Positions 31,654 through 42,865 of a DNA stretch of 64,000 nucleotides are shown in pieces. A model generated the notes under the pieces. It saw only the letters and a list, made by a program, of their open reading frames with translations, was not told where the DNA came from and did no database searches. Every line of letters starts with the position of its first letter. Within the stretch, counting starts at the first letter, position 1. The position numbers and the translations under genes were made by a program. Origin of the DNA: Opitutia bacterium (GTDB lineage Bacteria > Verrucomicrobiota > Verrucomicrobiia > Opitutales > T3Sed10-336); the NCBI GenBank assembly GCA_050506795.1, contig JBJHCF010000015.1:1-64000 (forward strand), read 5' to 3'.

Positions 31654-32679
31654 ATGAGAACCTGGATTCCATCGTTTCTGATCGTTCTGCTATTGTTGAG
31701 CTTCGGGCCCGAATTGCGGGCGCTGGGACTGGTGTGGCCGACGCCCAACCCAGCCTGGCTGGAGGGGCGGGCGCTGGAGGATTTTGTTCAGCCCGCCGCC
31801 TCCGGCAGAACGGAGTCCGCGTTATTCGGCTGTACCCGCACGGACGGCACCCGGTTTCATGAAGCGATCGACTTGAAGCCGATTCAACGGGATCGCCGGG
31901 GTGAGCCGCTGGACGCGATTTTTTCGGTTATGGATGGTCGGGTCCTTTATGCCAACCGCACACCCTGGCACAGTTCCTACGGGAACTACGTGGTTATCGA
32001 ACATACTGAGGTTTCCCCGTCGGTGATTTCCCTTTATGCCCACCTGGCCTCCATCGAGGATGCGGTGGTGGAGGGTCGCCGGGTGGTGTCGGGTCAGAAG
32101 ATCGGGGTTATGGGTCGATCGGCGGGCGGCTATACGATTCCGGTGACCCGGGCCCACCTGCATTTCGAACTCGGACTGTGGTTGAGTGAGACGTTCCAGG
32201 ACTGGTATGATTCCATGAACTACGAAAGTCCCAACCGCCATGGAGTGATGAGCGGACTCAATATGGTCGGCTTTGATCCGCTCGATTTCTACGACCGGTA
32301 CCGTACCGGGGAAGTCCGCGATTTTGCCGATTACCTGCGCCGGGAACCAGTCGCTTTCACCGTTCGGGTCGCCTCGGCACGGGTGCCCGACTTTGTGGCA
32401 CGCTATCCGGTTCTGCTGGAGGGAGACCTTCCCGAATTCGGTGTTTCCGGCTGGGAAATCGATTTTACCTGGTACGGGCTTCCCAAAATGTGGCGACCTT
32501 TGACCGAAACGATTGATTCTTCCGGCGGGAGGTTTCCGGTGGACGTTGTTTCCTTCGATGCGGATCTTCTGGCCGCCAACACCTGCCGCCCCACGGTGGG
32601 GTTGACGGCCGCCGGAACGCCTCGAATCGGTGCTCACACCGAGCGGGTGTTACGCATCCTGTTCGCGCTTTACGATTAG
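31654..32679 (+). CDS. M23 family metallopeptidase
   Basis: Signal peptide; HEAID, YGNYVVIEH, SLYAHL, HLHFE. Confidence 0.9.
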   Translation: MRTWIPSFLIVLLLLSFGPELRALGLVWPTPNPAWLEGRALEDFVQPAASGRTESALFGCTRTDGTRFHEAIDLKPIQRDRRGEPLDAIFSVMDGRVLYANRTPWHSSYGNYVVIEHTEVSPSVISLYAHLASIEDAVVEGRRVVSGQKIGVMGRSAGGYTIPVTRAHLHFELGLWLSETFQDWYDSMNYESPNRHGVMSGLNMVGFDPLDFYDRYRTGEVRDFADYLRREPVAFTVRVASARVPDFVARYPVLLEGDLPEFGVSGWEIDFTWYGLPKMWRPLTETIDSSGGRFPVDVVSFDADLLAANTCRPTVGLTAAGTPRIGAHTERVLRILFALYD

Positions 32680-32698
32680 AGCGCGCCGTTGGCGGAGG

Positions 32699-33115
32699 TC
32701 AGCGGTTATTGTCCCCGGCCATGTCAATCAACTCCTCGATCTTCTGGAGAAGTTCCGCCGGACGAAAGGGTTTGGCTATGAAATCGGTATTGCCCGCCAG
32801 GTCTTCTTCGGTATTGAGCTGGCTGTCGAGGTACCCGGACATATAGAGGACTCCCACGTCGGGGCGCTCCCGGCGGCACTGTTGGGCCAGTTCCTTACCG
32901 TTCATTCGCGGCATGACGATATCGGTGACCACCAGGTCGAGCCGGCTGGCGTTTTCCTTGAAAAAACTGAATGCTTCCTGCCCGTCCGGATAGGAGAATA
33001 CCTCGTAGCCGTCGTTCTTTAGAATCTCCTCGACCATTTCACGCACAATCTCAGCGTCTTCGGCTAAGAGAATGGTTTTATCGCGACTGGCGTGTTTTTT
33101 GGCTGCTGCATTCAT
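32699..33115 (-). CDS. Single-domain response regulator (CheY-like receiver)
   Basis: ILLAED, TDIVMPRMNG, MSGY, FIAKPF. Confidence 0.9.
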   Translation of the reverse strand: MNAAAKKHASRDKTILLAEDAEIVREMVEEILKNDGYEVFSYPDGQEAFSFFKENASRLDLVVTDIVMPRMNGKELAQQCRRERPDVGVLYMSGYLDSQLNTEEDLAGNTDFIAKPFRPAELLQKIEELIDMAGDNNR

Positions 33116-33275
33116 TGGCTCTGTCAGGCAAACCTTGGAGGGAATGAGGAGCGTGACGATGTTAAACTTGGATCAATTAACAAATTAATTACACAATCGC
33201 GGGTCAATTCGATTTGAATTGTTTCTTCAAATCACTTTCGGTGTCCGGTCCTGATGCCGCCCATTGCATCCCGCC

Positions 33276-35243
33276 TCAGCGCGGCGGTCCGTTGCCGGCA
33301 ACGTATTGATCGTGGAGGATCTGTATGCCCAGCAAGTGATTGAGAAGGGCGTCCTTGCGGGTGAGCGAAACGGAATCGGTGTCGGCTTCGTACTCTTTCA
33401 TGAAACTTTCGATTTTCGCGGGATCCAGGAGGCCCGCTTCCTCCACCTTTTCCCGGCAAAGGTAGAGATCGGTGAGTTTGGCCAAAGCCGTTTGCTTCTT
33501 CTTTTCCGTGTGGCCGGGAGGCGCCATAAAGGCGAATTTCTCCCGTTTATAAAGCACCTCTGGGAGGACGCCTTTCATGGCTTCACGCAGAACCCACTTT
33601 TCAATATTGCCTTGGATGCGTAAACCGGGGGGGACCTGCACCGCCGCTTCGGCCACGTGGTGGTCGAGGAAGGCGGGGCGGGATTCCATGGAATTGGCCA
33701 TGTCGACCCGGTCTCCACCCCAGTTGAGGATTTGCCCCTCCAACATCGTTTTGCTCCAGGTGTATTGGGCGATGTCGAGCGGGTGCCTGCCCTCGATCTG
33801 GGAGGGGTTCAGGGTTGCGGCGATGGCGTCGATGGGATCGTAGTCGCCGATCTCCTCCAGCGCTCCGCGGCTCAGCAGGGGACGGGCCAACTCCAGCGTG
33901 GCCATCCAGGGCTGAATCCACGACGGCGTGAAGCCGCAAAGCTCGTCGAACGAGGGGTGGTGGGCCTGGACCTCCGCCAGAATGGCCCCCTTGAAAATCC
34001 GGTTGCTCTTTTCCAGCGCCCGGTGGAAGGACTCCACCACCTCGGGGGGTTCGTCCTTGAGGCCGTGCATGAACATGTCGCGTTTGAACGACGGGTAGCC
34101 TCCGAAAAGTTCGTCGGCCCCTTCTCCGGTCACCACGCTCTTATAACCGGCCTCGCGCACGTGACGGCTCATGCAGAACTTGGCCACCCCCAGAGTATTG
34201 TAGAAGGTCCGTTCCGCGTGGTACATGGTGCGGAGGTAATTGTCGCCGTAAAGATCCTCCGCATTCAGGCGAATGAGGTCCTGCTCGGCGTTCATGCTTT
34301 CCGCCATTTGGGTCGCGATGACGGCCTCATCGTAATCGTCGCTGTCGAAACTGATGGTGAAGGCTTTGACCGGGGCCTGCTGGGCGCCGCTGGCCAGGCC
34401 GAGAATCGAACAGCTGTCGATACCGCCGGAGAGGTAACAACCCACGGGGACATCGGCTTCCAGGCGAAAGGTGACGGATTTGACCAACTCTTCGCGAATG
34501 CGCAGAATGTGTTCTTCCGGCGTAATCGCCGTGTCGCGCTCCTCGGGGAGCGGAAAATTCATATCCCAGTAGCATTGGTCCTCGATTTCCAGGCGTCCGT
34601 TCCGGCGCTGGACAATCAGCATGTGTCCGGGACGCAGGGCCTGGATGCCTTCGAAGGCGCTGGTTCCCGGCACCATGGTGTGCATGAGTTGGTGCAGGGC
34701 GGCTTTGCGGTCGAGTTTGCAGGGAACTTCGGGGTGCGCCAGCAGGGACTTGACCTCGGAGCCGTAGAATAGAGCGCCATCCTGTACGTGATAAAAAAGC
34801 GGCCGTACGCCAAAGCGATCCCGCACGAGAATCATGCGGTCCCGGGCCTGGTCGTAGAGGACGAAGGCGAACTCACCGCGCAGCTTGTGCACGAAGTCCA
34901 ATCCCATGCGCTGGTAATAGTGTATGGCGATCTCGCTGTCCGAGCGGGTGCGGAAACGCGCGCCGTCCGCCATCAGCGAAGCCCGGTGACGCTTGTAGTC
35001 GTAGAACTCCCCGTTGGCCGTGAGTACGATCTCGCCGGAGTGCGAGCACATCGGCTGGCTGCCGGTGTGCAGGTCAATGATGGTGAGCCGGGCGTGGCCC
35101 AGGGCGAGACCGCGTTCGGCGTCGATATGCATGCCGGTGCCGTCGGGACCGCGGTGGTGAATCGATTTCACCATCGCCTGTAATTCCTGCTCCGCCCCGG
35201 CGTCGAGGCCCTTTGCTTTCCAGAATCCGGTTATTCCGCACAT
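33276..35243 (-). CDS. AsnB-family glutamine-dependent amidotransferase (asparagine synthase-like)
   Basis: Start MCGI at 35243 (Ntn catalytic Cys), HRGPDG, HARLTIID, NGEFY, RDRFG, LSGGIDS, GEGADELFGGY, EKWVLRE. Substrate not assignable. Confidence 0.92.
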   Translation of the reverse strand: MCGITGFWKAKGLDAGAEQELQAMVKSIHHRGPDGTGMHIDAERGLALGHARLTIIDLHTGSQPMCSHSGEIVLTANGEFYDYKRHRASLMADGARFRTRSDSEIAIHYYQRMGLDFVHKLRGEFAFVLYDQARDRMILVRDRFGVRPLFYHVQDGALFYGSEVKSLLAHPEVPCKLDRKAALHQLMHTMVPGTSAFEGIQALRPGHMLIVQRRNGRLEIEDQCYWDMNFPLPEERDTAITPEEHILRIREELVKSVTFRLEADVPVGCYLSGGIDSCSILGLASGAQQAPVKAFTISFDSDDYDEAVIATQMAESMNAEQDLIRLNAEDLYGDNYLRTMYHAERTFYNTLGVAKFCMSRHVREAGYKSVVTGEGADELFGGYPSFKRDMFMHGLKDEPPEVVESFHRALEKSNRIFKGAILAEVQAHHPSFDELCGFTPSWIQPWMATLELARPLLSRGALEEIGDYDPIDAIAATLNPSQIEGRHPLDIAQYTWSKTMLEGQILNWGGDRVDMANSMESRPAFLDHHVAEAAVQVPPGLRIQGNIEKWVLREAMKGVLPEVLYKREKFAFMAPPGHTEKKKQTALAKLTDLYLCREKVEEAGLLDPAKIESFMKEYEADTDSVSLTRKDALLNHLLGIQILHDQYVAGNGPPR

Positions 35244-35333
35244 TTGATCAAAATAATTGAGTTCAGTCGCCGGTGCCAAGCTTCCTCTGGAACTCGGGGG
35301 CCGGCGATTTCGGGTGAATTCGGTTGAAACGGA

Positions 35334-36458
35334 TCAGCTCAGCGGAATGCCGTCGGGCAGCCGGTCGAAGCGGTCAAAGACCGCGGTGAGAAGCGCCTGC
35401 CGCACGAACACCGCCCCGTGGGCCTGCGCGAAGTAAAGGTTGTGGTTGGTGTCATCGAGGCTGGTATCCAGCTCGGTGAGACGCGCAAGCGGGTGCATGA
35501 TGACCGCCTCCTTTTTCAGCTGACTTGTCCCGTCAAGTTTGTTTTGGCTGTCCAGGGTGTGATAACTGCCACCGAGGTGGGCGATGGAATTGAGATATAT
35601 CACGTCCAGATCGGAAACCAGTTCGCCGATGGAATTGGACTCGTTGAACTCGATGCCGGCGGCCTCGATATCGTGTCTCAGTTCCGGTCCGAGGGGATCG
35701 GCCATTTCCGAAATGACGCTGATGCGGCGGAAATTCTCCTCGAAAAGAAGCGACATGAGCAGGAAGCTCTTGACCGCGCGCATGCTGCCCGGGGTGCCCA
35801 TGATGCCCAGATGGAGGCCGCCGTTACGTTTTCTTCCCTTGGCGTCGGCCAGTGCCGGGTTCCATTTGAGCAGTGCGTACCAGTCGGCCAGGGCCTGGGT
35901 GGGGTGTTCGCCCGAGCCGTTGCCCGCGTTGATCAGCGGGATACGCAGGTTCTTGCGAATGAGGTCGAGCGAATCGGTTTCGGTGTGACGCATGATCACG
36001 AGGTCGCCGTAGGCATTGAACATCTCGCCGATATCGCCCAGCGATTCGCCTTTCTTGACCCCGGTGATGGCGGCGTCCGGGATACTGATGATCTTTCCGT
36101 CGAGCCGTAGAGTGGCGCTTTCAAAAGAGGTCCGGGTGCGGGTGCTGGCTTCGAAGAAGGCGGTAATCACGATCTTGCCGTCCAGCAAATGGTAGGGCGC
36201 GATCTCCATCACTTCCAACAATGCGGCGAAACGGCACAGTTCAACCACCGTTTTGCGGTCGAAGTCCTTAACCGAAAGAATGGATTTTCCACTGAGATTC
36301 CGCAGGATCTTGAGGTCGATCGGCCGGTCGCCGAGCAGGTGCCTCGGGTCGGGTCTCAGGGTTTGGGAATCGGCGGGCGGTTCCAGTGCTTTGGTGCTTT
36401 GATTGGCCGGAAGGATGGAACCTGTCGCGGCGGATTTTCTGGTGACGTTTTTTTTCAT
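35334..36458 (-). CDS. Aspartate/ornithine carbamoyltransferase-family enzyme with non-canonical acceptor site
   Basis: FFEASTRT, KGESL, MRH, NAGNGSGEHPTQAL, MHPLAR, YFAQA are conserved. The ATCase YMTRxQxER motif is replaced by YLNSIAHL. Confidence 0.88.
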   Translation of the reverse strand: MKKNVTRKSAATGSILPANQSTKALEPPADSQTLRPDPRHLLGDRPIDLKILRNLSGKSILSVKDFDRKTVVELCRFAALLEVMEIAPYHLLDGKIVITAFFEASTRTRTSFESATLRLDGKIISIPDAAITGVKKGESLGDIGEMFNAYGDLVIMRHTETDSLDLIRKNLRIPLINAGNGSGEHPTQALADWYALLKWNPALADAKGRKRNGGLHLGIMGTPGSMRAVKSFLLMSLLFEENFRRISVISEMADPLGPELRHDIEAAGIEFNESNSIGELVSDLDVIYLNSIAHLGGSYHTLDSQNKLDGTSQLKKEAVIMHPLARLTELDTSLDDTNHNLYFAQAHGAVFVRQALLTAVFDRFDRLPDGIPLS

Positions 36459-36541
36459 CAGGATGCTGAAAATAAAATTGGTGCCATGTTAAATGGTGTT
36501 GAAGGTCGATGGTTCCGGATTTCCCTGGCCGGGACGGAGGT

Positions 36542-36667
36542 TTACCAGATCTGTTTGCGCAGATAGTCGACCAGAATCATCAGGAGCAGGATGAGGGCCG
36601 CGAGTCCGGTTAAGACCAGTGATCCGATAATTAAAAGCTGCAGCACGGGAGCGGGATAGTAGATCAT
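36542..36667 (-). CDS. 41-aa single-TM membrane protein (not in ORF track)
   Basis: MIYYPAPVLQLLIIGSLVLTGLAALILLLMILVDYLRKQIW*; its ATG overlaps the symporter stop (ATGA). Confidence 0.75.
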   Translation of the reverse strand: MIYYPAPVLQLLIIGSLVLTGLAALILLLMILVDYLRKQIW

Positions 36668-38133
36668 TGCAGAGTCCCTTTCCTGAGTTCTTCGTTGGAT
36701 TCGTTCAGCCTGGCCCAATCGAAATCATGGGGCCACGTGAGCGTACTGAACAAGGTGATGGTCATGGAAACGGCCGCCCCCACGAGCGCGCCCGAATACC
36801 AGCCGATTCCGAAATAGGCCCAGAGGCCAAGGCCGCTTCCCAGGACCATTGCGGCAATCACGCCCCAGGGATTGGTTTTTCGCCAGAACAGCCCGGCCGC
36901 CACCGGCCAGATCACCGCCCCGACCAGCGGGCCGGCGGCGAAGAGGAGTTGGGCCAGGGTCGCTTCGAAGACTGTGATGTTGAGGATACAGACCAGCCAG
37001 GTGGCGAATCCGAGACCCGCGATTATGACGATGGATGCGGTGCGGAGATGGCGTTCGCCGGGCTGGGATGCGATTCCCTTGCGGTAAATGTCTTCCGTGA
37101 TCAGGTCGGAGGTGGCGGCCAGCAGACTGTCTATGCTGGAGGCCAGAGAGCAGAAGAGGACGATAAAAATAATCACCGCGCCGGCCGCACCGAGCACCTC
37201 GCTGGCCGCCAGGGGGCCGAGCATGTCGGGTCGCGGCAGGTTGATGCCGAGCGAATCGCTGGAGAGCGCGACGAATCCTACCGCGATGGGGATGGGCAGC
37301 CAAAAGAGGCCGCCCAGCAGGTAGGCCTTGAACGCGACCCCCTTTCGCATGGCAAAGGCCCGGCTCCACCAGACGTTGTTATGAAAGATCTCTCCGAAAC
37401 CGAAGAGCATGTTGTTGAAAAAGGCGATGATCGCCGCCGGCAAAAGCACGTAGAGCAGGGCGGGTTGGTCGGCCATGACCGTGGTGTAAGTCGCGTCGAA
37501 ATCGATGCGGTGGTAGATCACCGCGCCCACGATTACCACGCCGACCAGAATGATGATACTTTGAATGAAGTCGGTGCCGATGACCGCATAAAGTCCGCCA
37601 AAGAGGGTGTAGAGCACACAGACCAGCAAGATAACGGTCATGCCGAGCGGAATCGGAATCCCCGCCACGGCATTCATTAGCAAGCCTCCCGCCATGGCCA
37701 TGGTCAACAGCCAGGCGAAACTGTAGAAGAGAGAAATCAAGAGAAAGATCACCCAGGCCAATCGACCGAACCGCAGGCGAATGAAATCGCCGCTGGTTAA
37801 TCCATTGGGCATGATGCGGCGGATACGGCGGGCCATGGGCGCGAAGAGAAACAGACCGAAGCAGGCGGTGGAGTACCCGAGCATGCCCCAGACGCCCAGT
37901 TCCAGTGCGAATTGCGGCGCCAGCATGGTGGTGTTCGAGGTGATCCAGGTCGCCATTGCGGTGGCGGCTCCGAGGGCCAGGCCCACGTTGCGTCCGGCCA
38001 CCATGTAACCGTCCATGTTCTTCGCCTTCCGGCCCCACAGGACGCCCAGGAACACCCAGAGTACGCCCAGTGCGCCCAGCAACACCCAGCCGGTTTGCGT
38101 GGAAAGGACCGCGGTTTCATGGCCGGCGTTCAT
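36664..38133 (-). CDS. Sodium:solute symporter (SSS, DUR3/urea-transporter-like)
   Basis: About 13 TM helices; GYMVAGR, ATWI, YTLFGGLYAVIGTDFIQ, WWSRAFA, LASSIDSLL. Start MNAGHET at 38133 overlaps the upstream stop. Confidence 0.9.
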   Translation of the reverse strand: MNAGHETAVLSTQTGWVLLGALGVLWVFLGVLWGRKAKNMDGYMVAGRNVGLALGAATAMATWITSNTTMLAPQFALELGVWGMLGYSTACFGLFLFAPMARRIRRIMPNGLTSGDFIRLRFGRLAWVIFLLISLFYSFAWLLTMAMAGGLLMNAVAGIPIPLGMTVILLVCVLYTLFGGLYAVIGTDFIQSIIILVGVVIVGAVIYHRIDFDATYTTVMADQPALLYVLLPAAIIAFFNNMLFGFGEIFHNNVWWSRAFAMRKGVAFKAYLLGGLFWLPIPIAVGFVALSSDSLGINLPRPDMLGPLAASEVLGAAGAVIIFIVLFCSLASSIDSLLAATSDLITEDIYRKGIASQPGERHLRTASIVIIAGLGFATWLVCILNITVFEATLAQLLFAAGPLVGAVIWPVAAGLFWRKTNPWGVIAAMVLGSGLGLWAYFGIGWYSGALVGAAVSMTITLFSTLTWPHDFDWARLNESNEELRKGTLQ

Positions 38134-38729
38134 GACGAATTCTCCTCTTCTCGCGCTTCCTCGCGGTCTTTGCGGCTGCCCGCCACCACGAGGACCAGGG
38201 TCGCCAGGACCACGATTCCGCCAATGGCGAACAACAGAATCGCGTCCCGCATTGATTGATACGTTATCCGGACCTGCAGCGGACGACTCCATTCGCCCGG
38301 CGGTCCGTCGTCAACCGCCGCGCGGACGCGGAAGTAAACCTCCCCTTCCGGCAGACCTCCCCGAAACGAAGTCCGATCCTGTCCTTCGTAAAGGGTTCGG
38401 GCCTCGCTGAAATCGGCAGACGCGGATTGTTGGAGCGTAAAGATCCTAATCTGGCCGTCGGGGGTTTCCTCCTCCCCGTCGATAGACCAGGACAGGCTGA
38501 CGTGGGGAACGTTGGTTTCCATGACATCGACCACGGTTCCGTCGACCTCGGCTTCGCCGGGTTCGTCGATCCCAAAAACGGCCCGGGGCCCCTGCGTTTC
38601 GTCCGCCGCGAGGGGAAACCTTGGGATCACGGTCAGGCAAAGGATCAAGGCGCAGGTCGCAAGGCGTTGCGGGAGGGGGCGGGGGTAGGGGCTTCGGCCG
38701 CCCCCGGAAGGCTGCGGACGGTATTCCAC
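38130..38729 (-). CDS. FN3-domain membrane-anchored protein
   Basis: Hydrophobic N-terminal segment, FN3-like core (VSLSW...LQQS...LYEG....GLPEGEVYFRVRA...GEWS), C-terminal TM helix. Start uncertain (GTG 38729 or further upstream to 38822). Confidence 0.7.
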   Translation of the reverse strand: MEYRPQPSGGGRSPYPRPLPQRLATCALILCLTVIPRFPLAADETQGPRAVFGIDEPGEAEVDGTVVDVMETNVPHVSLSWSIDGEEETPDGQIRIFTLQQSASADFSEARTLYEGQDRTSFRGGLPEGEVYFRVRAAVDDGPPGEWSRPLQVRITYQSMRDAILLFAIGGIVVLATLVLVVAGSRKDREEAREEENSS

Positions 38730-39016
38730 TTTGGCGTTGAACGTTGCGTTGGAAAAAAAGATGGACGGGCTCCTTTCAGCGTACGAGAGAACAGGAAACA
38801 GAATTGTGCCGAAAAGTAACACCTTATGCCACGAACCGGAGACCGGTTCAACCGAAAACTGCAGGGAGGCTCCTGCGGGGGGGGTCGTGCGGCGCCGTTG
38901 AGCCGAGGGTATAGGCAGACGAAACGAGCGGACTCAAGGCCGAAGCAAACCGTTGAAATCAAATACGTTCTGTTGCCAGCACGGACGAGGAAGGGGGGCG
39001 GTTTCCGGTGTGAAGT

Positions 39017-40369
39017 TCAGTCCTCCGATCGGACCGGGAGGTCGCCGTCGGCGAATTGATTGATCAGTCGGGTTCCCGGTGAGATTCCCTCCCGGCGCGA
39101 CAGCGGGACGCCGTTTTCGTCGCGTACCAGAACGAATCCGCGCTGGAGAACGGAATCCGGCCCCAGGGTTTGCAGTCGTTTTCCGAGGTGAATCATTTTT
39201 TCGCGCCGGGCGGGAAGTTCGGTGGCCATGAGGCGTTCGAAGCGGGCCCGCAGAGCGGAATAGCTCGCCACCGCCAGATTAAGGCGATGGGAGGGCAACG
39301 ATTGATCGAATCGCGACCGCAGTTCCGCGGTCAGGCTCTTTTTCTCCCAGAGAACCGCTTTGGCGCCCGCATGCAGGCGGTTTGCCAGGTCGTCCAGACG
39401 CAAGTACCCGTTTTCGATCCGGTTTACCGGGGAAACGCTCTGCAGGCGGTGGTGCAGCAGTTTCAATTCGCGTGCGCACGTTTCGAGGCGAAGGTCGACC
39501 TTTTCCCGCAGCCGGTCACGCGCCGCGGCCAGGCGGTCACGGCATTCGATGAAACCGCTGGAAATCACTTCCGCCGCGGCGGAGGGGGTTTCCGCCCGCA
39601 GGTCGGCCGCGAAATCACAAAGAGTGAAGTCGATTTCGTGCCCGACCGCGGAAACCACGGGCAGGGGACAGGCCGCCACCGCGCGAGCCAGGATTTCCTC
39701 GTTGAAGGGCCAAAGGTCCTCCAGGCTACCTCCTCCTCGACCGATCACCAGGGCGTCGAGAAAAGGCAGACTGGCCGCGTATTTCAACATGGAGACCATC
39801 TCGGCGGCCGCTTCCGCCCCCTGGACCCGTACCGGCATCAGGATGAGGCGTCCCCACCATCCGCGCCGTTTCAGGATTCGCAGGAAATCCTGGGCCGCCG
39901 CGCCGGTAGGGGAGGTGATGAATCCGACTGTGGACGGAATCTTGGGGATGGGGCGTTTGTTGGCAGAATCGAAAAGCCCTTCCGCCGCCAGTTTCCTTTT
40001 GAGGCGCTCGAATTCCATCTGCAAGCGCCCCTGACCGTCCTCCTGCAATTGCCGGACGATGAGTTGGTAGGCGCCCCGCGGTTCGTACACGTTCACCGCT
40101 CCCTGTGCCAGAACCTGTATTCCGTCGCGCAGCGTCGCCCCGGTTCGGGCCGCGTCGCCCCGAAATAAAACGCAGGGAAGCTGACTGCCCGCGTCCTTGA
40201 GCGAGAAATAGCAGTGCCCGCTGCTTTGCCGTCGAAAATTCGAAATCTCCCCCCGCACCCACACCTCCGGCAAGGACGTTTCCAGGAGCGCCTTGATGCG
40301 CCGGGTAAACTCCGTAATGGTCAGCGGGCGATCCGTGGTGTCGGTTGGCAGGTAAAAGTCGGTAGGCAT
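39017..40369 (-). CDS. xseA: Exodeoxyribonuclease VII large subunit
   Basis: VWVRGEISNF, SGHCYFSLKD, ITSPTGAA, VQG, RGGGSLEDLWPFNEE, SAVGHEIDFT, ETPSAAAE. Confidence 0.95.
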   Translation of the reverse strand: MPTDFYLPTDTTDRPLTITEFTRRIKALLETSLPEVWVRGEISNFRRQSSGHCYFSLKDAGSQLPCVLFRGDAARTGATLRDGIQVLAQGAVNVYEPRGAYQLIVRQLQEDGQGRLQMEFERLKRKLAAEGLFDSANKRPIPKIPSTVGFITSPTGAAAQDFLRILKRRGWWGRLILMPVRVQGAEAAAEMVSMLKYAASLPFLDALVIGRGGGSLEDLWPFNEEILARAVAACPLPVVSAVGHEIDFTLCDFAADLRAETPSAAAEVISSGFIECRDRLAAARDRLREKVDLRLETCARELKLLHHRLQSVSPVNRIENGYLRLDDLANRLHAGAKAVLWEKKSLTAELRSRFDQSLPSHRLNLAVASYSALRARFERLMATELPARREKMIHLGKRLQTLGPDSVLQRGFVLVRDENGVPLSRREGISPGTRLINQFADGDLPVRSED

Positions 40370-40378
40370 GGGGGGCGA

Positions 40379-40588
40379 TTCTTTGTTCTTTGTTCCTGGT
40401 GCTTTGTTCCTGGTTCTTGGTTCCTGGTTTTTTGCTTGGGAGAGTGGAGCGAGTTTTGAGGGGTGGGTTTCTGATCGTCAATGGCCTGTTTGCGATTGTT
40501 CACATCATTAACCATCGGTACAACCAACAACAAAGAACCAAGAAACAAGAACCAGGAACCATGGAACCGAGAACCAGGAACAAGGGAA
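40379..40588. repeat. Inverted pair of degenerate heptamer tandem arrays
   Basis: Eight TTCYTKG-like units at 40379-40434, and about nine complementary CMARGAA-like units at 40524-40588, around a roughly 90-nt core. Confidence 0.85.
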
Positions 40589-40876
40589 GCCGGCAATCGG
40601 GTAAACCGAAGACTAGTTTTGGGCAAAATTCGCCGAGACGGTTCCGCGGCTCTCCAGTATTCAGAATGAGATGGGGATAACCAGTCGCTGGGAAAAAATA
40701 TGGACCGAGGCAAGCCGGCGTGTTAGCGTCCGGACTCGTTTCGCATTGACTGGGCGTGTTTTCGGAGAATGACCGACAGTTCCGAAGCCCGCGGCCCTTC
40801 ACGGGCCCCCATGATTGCCGGCCTTCCGCCTCATGGCGAATGACTTTTGATCCATAATCACACGAGGACATCAAAT

Positions 40877-42865
<1,989 letters not shown>

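Follow-up and report, generated by a model that had tools for sequence, protein, structure and literature searches.

The first 64,000 nucleotides of contig JBJHCF010000015.1 from an Opitutia bacterium (GCA_050506795.1), here called the window, carry at 33276-38729 a cassette of five genes, encoding an FN3 membrane protein, a DUR3-like symporter of the SSF family, a 41-residue membrane peptide, a carbamoyltransferase (CT) and an AsnB-type amidotransferase. The original prediction described these genes as co-oriented, with ATGA overlaps joining the first three, and the open reading frames (ORFs) and the sequence bear this out. All five lie on the minus strand, the FN3 stop and the symporter start share an ATGA at 38130-38133, and the symporter stop and peptide start share another at 36664-36667, by which the peptide is translationally coupled to the symporter. 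Gaps of 83 nucleotides separate the peptide from the CT gene and of 90 nucleotides the CT from the AsnB gene. The start of the FN3 gene is uncertain: the GTG at 38729 is the choice of the original prediction, and the frame is open up to 38822. For the symporter, the longest ORF begins at 38292, with homologues aligning only from the ATG at 38133. The true start of AsnB is the ATG giving MCGI, downstream of the TTG at 35279 that opens the ORF, because Cys becomes residue 1 once Met is removed and family models align from there. The G+C content of the cassette resembles that of the remainder of the window.

Table 1. Features of the cassette and of related loci. Plain numbers are positions in the window; L, C and G numbers denote cassette loci from other genomes, contigs and genomes.
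Feature	Position	Strand	Evidence
FN3-fold single-pass membrane protein	38130..38729	-	ORF; AlphaFold2 model; Foldseek
DUR3-like SSF symporter	36664..38133	-	Pfam SSF; PDB relative DUR3
41-residue hydrophobic peptide, single transmembrane helix	36542..36667	-	Sequence
Carbamoyltransferase (CT)	35334..36458	-	OTCace_N and OTCace
N-terminal extension of the CT	36294-36458	-	
AsnB-type amidotransferase, long form	33276..35243	-	GATase_7 and Asn_synthase
Fusion protein between CT and AsnB	L043:9074-11971	+	
Fusion protein between CT and AsnB	L054:9972-12095		
Fusion protein beside cassette	L060:2757-5696	-	
Fusion protein beside cassette	L070:5027-7960	-	
Hydrolase orthologues in the source genome	C16:26758-28047, C5:69350-70165		
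Asparaginyl-tRNA synthetase and GatB observation, source genome	C19:52512-53279, C16:21680-22984, C30:24000-25436		
MarR-type regulator upstream of FN3 gene (examples)	L037:5019-5558, L086:5528-5944		
Amidase match with two in-frame stops, G316	C151:282-992		
Amidase match with two in-frame stops, G336	C66:29-631		
580-residue ORF	40919-42661	-	
Acetyl-CoA synthetase gene	40847-42865	+	

The CT scores below the models of both housekeeping transcarbamylases, with 172.4 bits against aspartate carbamoyltransferase (ATCase; TIGR00670, cut-off 236.95) and 64 bits against ornithine carbamoyltransferase (OTCase; TIGR00658, cut-off 281). Canonical copies of both, whose existence the original prediction had proposed to confirm, lie elsewhere in the genome: pyrB on contig C7 (317.9 bits; FLEPSTRT, HPTQ, RIQHER) and argF on contig C42 (350 bits; FAKSSTRT, HPCQ, HCLP, DVWVSMG). 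In the available text of a 2015 transcarbamylase review, the SxRT, HPxQ and HxLP motifs, the last with a cis Leu-Pro, bind carbamoyl phosphate, RxQxER in the 240s loop defines ATCases and DxxxSMG defines OTCases (PMC4581275). The CT carries FFEASTRT, the form of the ATCase branch, together with HPTQ and HPLA. Its STRT and HPTQ, which place it in the superfamily, are invariant in the family alignment, and at least 90% of 18 sequences have Ala where HxLP has its proline. Neither RxQxER nor DxxxSMG was found in the CT by motif search or alignment, and the place of RxQxER is taken by N-S-I-A-x-L-G, invariant or nearly so in the 18 sequences. Judged from its sequence, the CT is a distinct family on the ATCase branch, in which the carbamoyl-phosphate site is intact and the motifs specifying aspartate or ornithine are absent.

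The residues lining the second substrate site bear on what is carbamoylated. In ATCase, according to the same available text, the α-carboxylate of aspartate is bound by R167 and the β-carboxylate by R229 and Q231 (PMC4581275). A HMMER alignment to solved ATCases matches R227 of the CT to R167, and S291 and A293 to R229 and Q231; two inserted residues come next in the CT. Around these positions N290, S291, I292, L295, G296, S298, Y299 and D303 are invariant in 18 diverse CTs. From this pattern we infer that the second substrate is an α-amino acid with a free carboxylate and a side chain that is uncharged, or possibly cationic, and longer than that of aspartate. An ESM Atlas search with the CT returned 'carbamoyltransferase' clusters only. 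The protein also has a conserved N-terminal extension of about 55 residues (L-E-P-P-x-D-S-x-T-L-R-P-E-P...), absent from ATCases, which could be a partner-binding or regulatory segment.

The AsnB-type enzyme lies below the specific cut-offs of its relatives, with 374 of 817 bits for the XrtA-type model, 280 of 570 for TIGR03104, named by NCBIfam 'N-acetylglutaminylglutamine amidotransferase', and 266 of 499 for E. coli AsnB. Its closest solved relative is the hydroxyamidotransferase 7ylz (166 bits), followed by E. coli AsnB (139 bits). The MCG[IV] start is kept in 64 of 65 orthologues and the SGGIDS PP-loop in all 65, and by this conservation the family looks like active glutamine-dependent amidating enzymes. 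The cassette enzyme looks catalytically complete, with a Cys1 nucleophile and a PP-loop, and it probably amidates a carboxyl group of a carbamoylated intermediate. In a modelled human asparagine synthetase, as given in the available text, aspartyl-AMP is held through its amino group by an acidic cluster (PMC6748925). We considered this GEGxDE cluster as a test of a free amino group on the AsnB substrate and dropped it, since 7ylz keeps it too.

A housekeeping asparagine synthetase does not seem to be needed by this organism. In the source genome, which is 97.8% complete, asparaginyl-tRNA synthetase was not found (best match 109 bits, cut-off 343), and GatB is present at 560 bits. The organism therefore appears to form Asn-tRNA by transamidation, for which no such synthetase is required. 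The two best matches of the asparaginyl-tRNA synthetase search look, by length and score, like the aspartyl- and lysyl-tRNA synthetases.

The symporter is a member of the SSF family (76.7 bits against the Pfam model, gathering score 22.8) and lies below every specific NCBIfam cut-off. The label 'DUR3-like' given by the original prediction is sound: the best solved relative is plant DUR3 (9j7c, 119 bits, E 2e-33), and the next SSF structure reaches 45 bits. The available text on AtDUR3 lists W93, W95, T98, Y117, Q124, N305, Y315, W338 and Y461 as urea contacts and D312 and E402 as proton-coupling residues (PMC11840088). We mapped these positions by a HMMER alignment to DUR3 and a family alignment of 61 orthologues. 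Four of the nine contacts are kept (W93, T98, Y117 and W338), as are P342 and P474 of DUR3, and the other five are changed invariantly in the 61 orthologues (W95T, Q124G, N305G, Y315W and Y461L). Both proton-coupling residues are replaced as well, D312 by Asn or Ser and E402 by Leu. Most of the pocket replacements are smaller and all are uncharged, which suggests a roomier, uncharged pocket suited to a neutral ureido-type ligand larger than urea. The eighth transmembrane helix reads S-S-I-D-S, a stretch that we take to resemble the Na2 site of Na+-coupled SSF members, and the symporter is probably Na+-coupled. In the source genome neither a urease alpha subunit nor a urea carboxylase scored above cut-off, and a plain urea importer would therefore be without a partner enzyme.

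Neither the FN3 protein nor the peptide matches a Pfam or NCBIfam family. The AlphaFold2 model of the FN3 protein has a predicted local distance difference test (pLDDT) score of 87.4 and shows a signal or transmembrane helix at residues 21-37, the strands of a β-sandwich at 50-155 and a helix at 158-198; the protein ends in a transmembrane helix. Its best PDB matches in Foldseek are FN3 domains (6pol, E 9e-6, probability 1.00), which justifies the earlier assignment. We then predicted a complex of three chains, namely the symporter, the peptide and FN3 residues 40-199, with custom alignments and three controls. The interface score ipSAE between FN3 protein and symporter was 0.88, 0.88 and 0.87, compared with 0.01 for the best of the three controls; the peptide chain was included and left unscored. 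In the calibration of the method, 116 of 157 solved complexes and 2 of 215 mismatched pairs attained this score, a yardstick only roughly valid for three chains with custom alignments. The runs shared at least 96% of contacts, and the pLDDT of the partner was 80 or more. The modelled C-terminal helix of the FN3 protein packs on symporter residues 96-106, 235-246, 408-417 and 446-457, while the FN3 loops contact the extracytoplasmic symporter loops 77-80, 222-233 and 298-302. The prediction supports, without proving, a role of the FN3 protein as an accessory subunit that binds the symporter. Members of the peptide family end in D-x6-W, and L27, D34 and W41 are invariant in the alignment.

Relatives of the CT are widespread. 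Counting one genome per species, 312 species genomes contain one, and the best 80 of these 312 loci were fetched for context. Close relatives, 60-90% identical, occur in many metagenomes and genomes and bear the public names 'aspartate carbamoyltransferase' or 'hypothetical protein'. The original prediction had foreseen that automatic annotation would hide the cassette, and these names fit that expectation, the genes not being the housekeeping pyrB, asnB and putP. When the 80 loci were searched by tblastn with the window proteins, AsnB was detected in 79, the symporter in 78 and the FN3 protein in 65. Where enough DNA was available, the counts were 67/67 for AsnB (downstream of the CT), 69/69 for the symporter and 63/66 for the FN3 protein (upstream of the symporter). 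The order FN3-SSF-CT-AsnB on one strand was kept in all 64 loci in which the three parts other than the CT were detected. A hydrophobic ORF of about 39-56 residues, as called, lies between symporter and CT in each of the 59 loci examined; the longer calls are probably over-extended at the N-terminus. With this gene order and this peptide ORF, the cassette is far beyond a chance neighbourhood.

The carriers among the best 80 loci belong to Verrucomicrobiota, Bacteroidota, Ignavibacteriota, Calditrichota, Nitrospirota, Gemmatimonadota, Acidobacteriota, Melainabacteria and GN15, and the cassette is present in at least 8 phyla. In a quick maximum-likelihood tree of 71 CTs (9 rows were omitted, their CT ORF being shorter than 340 residues or outside the cluster), the Bacteroidota form one supported clade and the Nitrospirota one, and the Verrucomicrobiota need two changes. 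By this pattern the cassette looks old and patchily retained rather than recently scattered. A tblastn search of a plasmid collection with the CT at 1e-40 gave no match. In a sample of 301 Verrucomicrobiota genomes, 4 have the CT, this one included (about 1%), and symporter homologues at E 1e-30 or better occur in the same 4 only. Cultured carriers include Flexithrix dorotheae DSM 6795, Haloferula luteola, H. sargassicola, Luteolibacter marinus, Pelagicoccus sp. and Chitinophaga japonensis DSM 13484. Conservation in halophilic or marine taxa had been raised by the original prediction; the cluster is indeed conserved across phyla, but its carriers are not solely halophiles and include Nitrospira metagenome-assembled genomes (MAGs), C. 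japonensis and Anseongella.

Some loci have additional genes at the borders of the cassette. A MarR-type regulator stands directly upstream of the FN3 gene in 18 of the 80 loci and is absent from the window, as is an extra protein of about 130 residues, without family match, found between the MarR regulator and the cassette in four Bacteroidota loci. A pair of HAMP histidine kinase and OmpR-type response regulator adjoins the cassette in L026, L027, L042 and two other loci; in the three named, from Lewinellaceae/Saprospiraceae, it comes after AsnB and is encoded on the opposite strand. Five loci have an arylsulfatase-like gene in the vicinity of the cassette.

Clustering of all ORFs of the 80 loci brought out two hydrolases. 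An M20 enzyme of about 430 residues is found near the cassette in 21 loci and an isochorismatase-family protein of about 250 residues in 17, with both in 16; at least one of the hydrolases is next to the cassette in 26 of the 80. In 11 loci the pair stands immediately after AsnB in the same orientation; elsewhere it is divergent upstream or convergent. The M20 representative, from L034, scores 511.6 bits against NF006771 'allantoate amidohydrolase' (cut-off 399) and 376 against the hydantoinase/carbamoylase amidase family TIGR01879 (cut-off 204), above both cut-offs, and 364 against the N-carbamyl-L-glutamate amidohydrolase ErtE, below the cut-off of 520. The smaller enzyme matches PF00857 Isochorismatase with 114 bits and has a weak likeness, below both cut-offs, to biuret amidohydrolase (BiuH) and RutB. 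Its Asp-Lys-Cys triad (D47, K152 and C185) is invariant in 18 sequences.

The two hydrolases follow the cassette even where they are not linked to it. The source genome holds both orthologues apart from the cassette, amid unrelated genes. Among the 301 Verrucomicrobiota, amidase orthologues of 56-66% identity occur only in the 4 cassette genomes, with paralogues of 36-40% in 3 others. The same 4 alone have M20 orthologues of 57-58% identity and more than 510 bits, 32 others having paralogues of at most 38%. With four carriers, and related genomes not being independent, this is a pattern and not a statistic. We also searched 50 cassette genomes of several phyla, from 50 of the 80 loci picked for longer flanks, and found the amidase in 31 and a strong M20 orthologue in 35. 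Together with the co-occurrence, these counts indicate that the hydrolases depend on the cassette and the cassette not on the hydrolases. In the genomes of L033 and L067 (G316 and G336) the amidase match has two in-frame stops, which may reflect gene decay or assembly error near contig ends.

These distributions bear on two other explanations. Ordinary pyrB, asnB and putP paralogues could stand side by side by chance, with no joint function, a view for which the public names of the relatives speak. We consider this extremely improbable in view of the constant order across phyla, the all-or-none presence of symporter, CT and both hydrolases in the 301 genomes, and the absence of the ATCase specificity motif. 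Alternatively, the genes could serve scavenging, in which the transporter would draw nitrogen into the cell as urea or some external ureido compound, the enzymes would assimilate it, and the CT would act phosphorolytically, in the manner of putrescine carbamoyltransferase or catabolic OTCase. Urea is indeed the substrate of the solved transporter closest to the symporter, the linked hydrolases come from families that degrade ureides and biuret-like compounds, and catabolic transcarbamylases exist according to the review text available (PMC4581275). However, more than half of the urea contacts and both proton-coupling residues differ from DUR3, and the genome search found neither urease nor urea carboxylase. 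An amidotransferase that consumes ATP and glutamine would be out of place in catabolism, yet it is the obligatory component and the hydrolases are optional. Nor is a carbamate kinase among the conserved neighbours. A scavenging role is accordingly improbable.

Four Bacteroidota loci contain a fusion protein of 707-979 residues, typically about 970, without a Pfam match. From about residue 380 onwards it is a divergent M20 carbamoylase-like protein (131-135 bits to NF006771). In the N-terminal part of about 375 residues, whose model has a pLDDT of 88.7, C51, H155 and D176 are invariant in 26 sequences. VIA-align superposes this domain on protein-glutaminase with a Z of 12.5 and a root-mean-square deviation of 2.7 Å over 149 of 185 residues, compared with a Z of 6.3 for the runner-up fold, N-terminal glutamine amidase. 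Foldseek alone gave a weak match (E 6e-3), and an ESM Atlas search with the domain returned no usable match. Of the 19 cassette genomes without an isochorismatase-type amidase, 5 were found to contain the N-domain, and the fusion family counts 51 members, including Flavilitoribacter nigricans, Leptospiraceae MAGs and the Gammaproteobacteria Lacimicrobium alkaliphilum and Bowmanella dokdonensis. By domain content, the fusion is the apparent replacement of the two hydrolases in some Bacteroidota. An amide-hydrolase fold fused to a decarbamoylase-like part within the cassette gives independent support to a metabolite that bears both an amide and an N-carbamoyl group. The glutaminase fold is also a weak hint of a glutamine-type amide.

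We read the five genes as one module that would make and recapture a small uncharged ureido-amide, likeliest an N-α-carbamoyl amino-acid amide, which would then be broken down. We place the probability of this reading at about 0.5. In the proposed route, the ATCase-like CT would move the carbamoyl group from carbamoyl phosphate onto the α-amino group of a neutral amino acid whose α-carboxylate is free, the best guess for this amino acid being glutamine. The AsnB-type enzyme would then adenylate a carboxyl group of the CT product and amidate it with glutamine-derived ammonia. A three-subunit importer, composed of the DUR3-like symporter, the FN3 protein and the transmembrane peptide of about 40 residues, would take the uncharged compound back up, probably with Na+. 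For degradation, the isochorismatase-type Cys amidase would strip the amide and expose a carboxylate, and the enzyme of the M20 N-carbamoyl-amino-acid amidohydrolase type would subsequently strip the carbamoyl group; M20 carbamoylases generally need a free carboxylate. Roughly two thirds of the carriers would degrade the compound by these two hydrolases, among them the source genome, whose genes for them are unlinked on C5 and C16. We infer the substrates, the order of the steps, the Na+ coupling and the role of the product as compatible solute and/or nitrogen reserve. The operon-like view taken in the original prediction gains from the pyrB and argF elsewhere, the CT lacking RxQxER, the finding of GatB and of no asparaginyl-tRNA synthetase, and the altered DUR3-like pocket. 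Its idea of carbamoylation followed by amidation gains from the strictly co-occurring, often adjacent M20 and isochorismatase-type hydrolases and from the fusion.

N-α-carbamoyl-L-glutamine 1-amide (CGA), or a close analogue, is a tentative candidate for the product. By the available text of two sources, no other natural solute so far described calls for exactly one N-carbamoylation together with one carboxyl amidation of an amino acid (PMC1224877, PMC7824335). The literature that mentions CGA, these two included, names no biosynthetic genes for it in the text available. The link to the cassette is purely chemical, and the best 80 of the 312 loci include no Ectothiorhodospira, the genus of the known CGA producer E. 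marismortui. In the source genome we found no ectoine synthase, by a family search whose control scored in 0 of 14 control genomes, no protein of the OtsA/GgpS family and no Ngg (TIGR03103); two BCCT transporters are present. This survey leaves room for a solute made de novo and proves nothing.

Several observations weigh against this reading of the module. The AsnB-type enzyme reaches 405 bits against TIGR01536, the general glutamine-hydrolysing asparagine synthase model (cut-off 267), and retains the acidic cluster as GEG(A/S)DE. In the 11 loci where the hydrolases directly follow AsnB, synthesis and degradation would, if co-transcribed, have the appearance of a futile cycle. Neither the amidase nor the fusion was found, with the queries used, in 14 of the 50 cassette genomes. 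Just three features point to glutamine, namely a CT pocket that is roomier and uncharged, a transporter pocket free of charges, and the fold that the fused hydrolase shares with protein-glutaminase. A dependence on salt is uncertain in view of C. japonensis and the Nitrospira MAGs, whose habitats are presumably non-saline. Finally, it is unusual for a compatible solute that its importer should be transcribed together with the genes for its synthesis.

The retained acidic cluster and the TIGR01536 score also belong to a different assignment, in which AsnB would be a true asparagine synthetase supplying free asparagine, the CT would convert this to anionic N-carbamoyl-L-asparagine, and the hydrolases would reverse both steps. 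AsnB is the sole match in the genome above the TIGR01536 cut-off, and with GatB present and asparaginyl-tRNA synthetase not found, no other source of free asparagine is expected. Asparagine is isosteric with aspartate, and the CT, which with its FxExSTRT sits on the ATCase branch, keeps the Arg for the α-carboxylate and has lost only the residues that bind the β-carboxylate. AsnB also retains its acidic cluster. However, the change of R229 and Q231 to small residues, with the two-residue insertion, suggests a side chain longer than that of asparagine. The mapped transporter pocket residues, all uncharged, fit a neutral ligand better than an anion. AsnB also scores higher against the XrtA-type model, a non-Asn long form (374 bits), than against E. 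coli AsnB (266 bits), and the fold of the fused hydrolase is that of a glutaminase, not an asparaginase. On balance we regard the asparagine route as unlikely.

It is rather doubtful, though less easily dismissed, that carbamoyl phosphate and an amidated acid are turned into a different product, such as a nitrogen-storage ureide, a signal or the precursor of a secreted metabolite, with the importer bringing in a precursor. The importer genes are promoter-proximal and translationally coupled, and the MarR-type regulator upstream in 18 of 80 loci would accord with such a role. The patchy spread, at about 1% of a phylum, is likewise that of many accessory pathways. On the other hand, no non-ribosomal peptide synthetase, polyketide synthase, tailoring enzyme or exporter genes are conserved beside the cassette in the 80 loci, and the only partners found to depend on the cassette, the two hydrolases, mirror the pair of synthetic steps in the proposed ureido-amide route.

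The ureido-amide module can be compared with several known systems. It resembles asnO-ngg of N-acetylglutaminylglutamine amide (NAGGN), also a neutral osmolyte with a masked amino group and a carboxyl group amidated by a glutamine-dependent AsnB-family enzyme, AsnO being the NAGGN-amidating enzyme. In NAGGN, however, the masking is done by an acetyltransferase/ligase, whereas the cassette would use carbamoyl phosphate through an ATCase-like enzyme and has its own dedicated importer. The cassette AsnB is below the cut-off of the NAGGN model, and the genome search for Ngg was negative. With ATCase and ureidoglycine carbamoyltransferase the CT shares FxExSTRT, HPxQ and the Arg equivalent to R167, and its best PDB and NCBIfam matches are ATCases. 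It differs in having no RxQxER, HPLA rather than HPLP or H(T/S)LP, the 55-residue N-terminal extension and an invariant N-S-I-x-x-L-G-x-S-Y. The DUR3 urea-proton symporter of plants and yeast is the closest solved structure to the cassette symporter and shares W93, T98, Y117, W338, P342 and P474; the cassette protein, at about 490 residues, has no DUR3 C-terminal domain and is predicted to have two small partner subunits. The two hydrolases belong to the same families as L-carbamoylase, allantoate amidohydrolase, ErtE, BiuH and RutB and keep the Asp-Lys-Cys triad. They stay below the cut-offs of ErtE, BiuH and RutB and form orthologue groups of their own, which in the 301-genome sample are confined to genomes with the cassette. 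At the level of superfamilies, the enzymes and the transporter are already known. The CT subfamily, the three-part SSF transporter, the hydrolase pair with the fusion, and the cassette as a whole appear undescribed in the openly accessible literature searched.

The surroundings of the cassette in the window are xseA, a receiver-domain response regulator, an M23 peptidase, queG, aroK, a polyprenyl synthase, acs and comEC, as identified by Pfam and NCBIfam. No pyrC, pyrI or arg gene is among them, as the original prediction had observed. An Rfam scan of 32000-40500 with E up to 1 gave no match and hence no riboswitch lead, and consensus scans for promoters and terminators gave sites no more numerous than in shuffled sequence. 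Among sequencing runs, no RNA run was listed as containing the stretch; one DNA run contains all of it and may be its source, and two others contain small shares. The 580-residue ORF opposite the acetyl-CoA synthetase gene has no family match and is probably a shadow ORF of G+C-rich DNA; comparable shadow ORFs also lie opposite the cassette genes.

If the ureido-amide reading is true, the cassette would extend by a new class of substrates the transcarbamylase family, for which the 2015 review, in its available text, lists nine specificities and calls for more (PMC4581275). It would also assign genes to an orphan class of solutes and explain a gene set that has been hidden behind its public labels. 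The importer would combine an SSF transporter with two further subunits, an extracytoplasmic FN3 protein and a micro-peptide, and would be of a kind not previously described. Should the product be CGA, a compatible solute or nitrogen reserve reported from few purple sulfur bacteria, and best documented in one, would be made by hundreds of species in at least 8 phyla, by way of a new glutamine-type transcarbamylase and with a dedicated two-step hydrolytic route for its turnover. Since cultured carriers exist, the hypothesis is directly testable.

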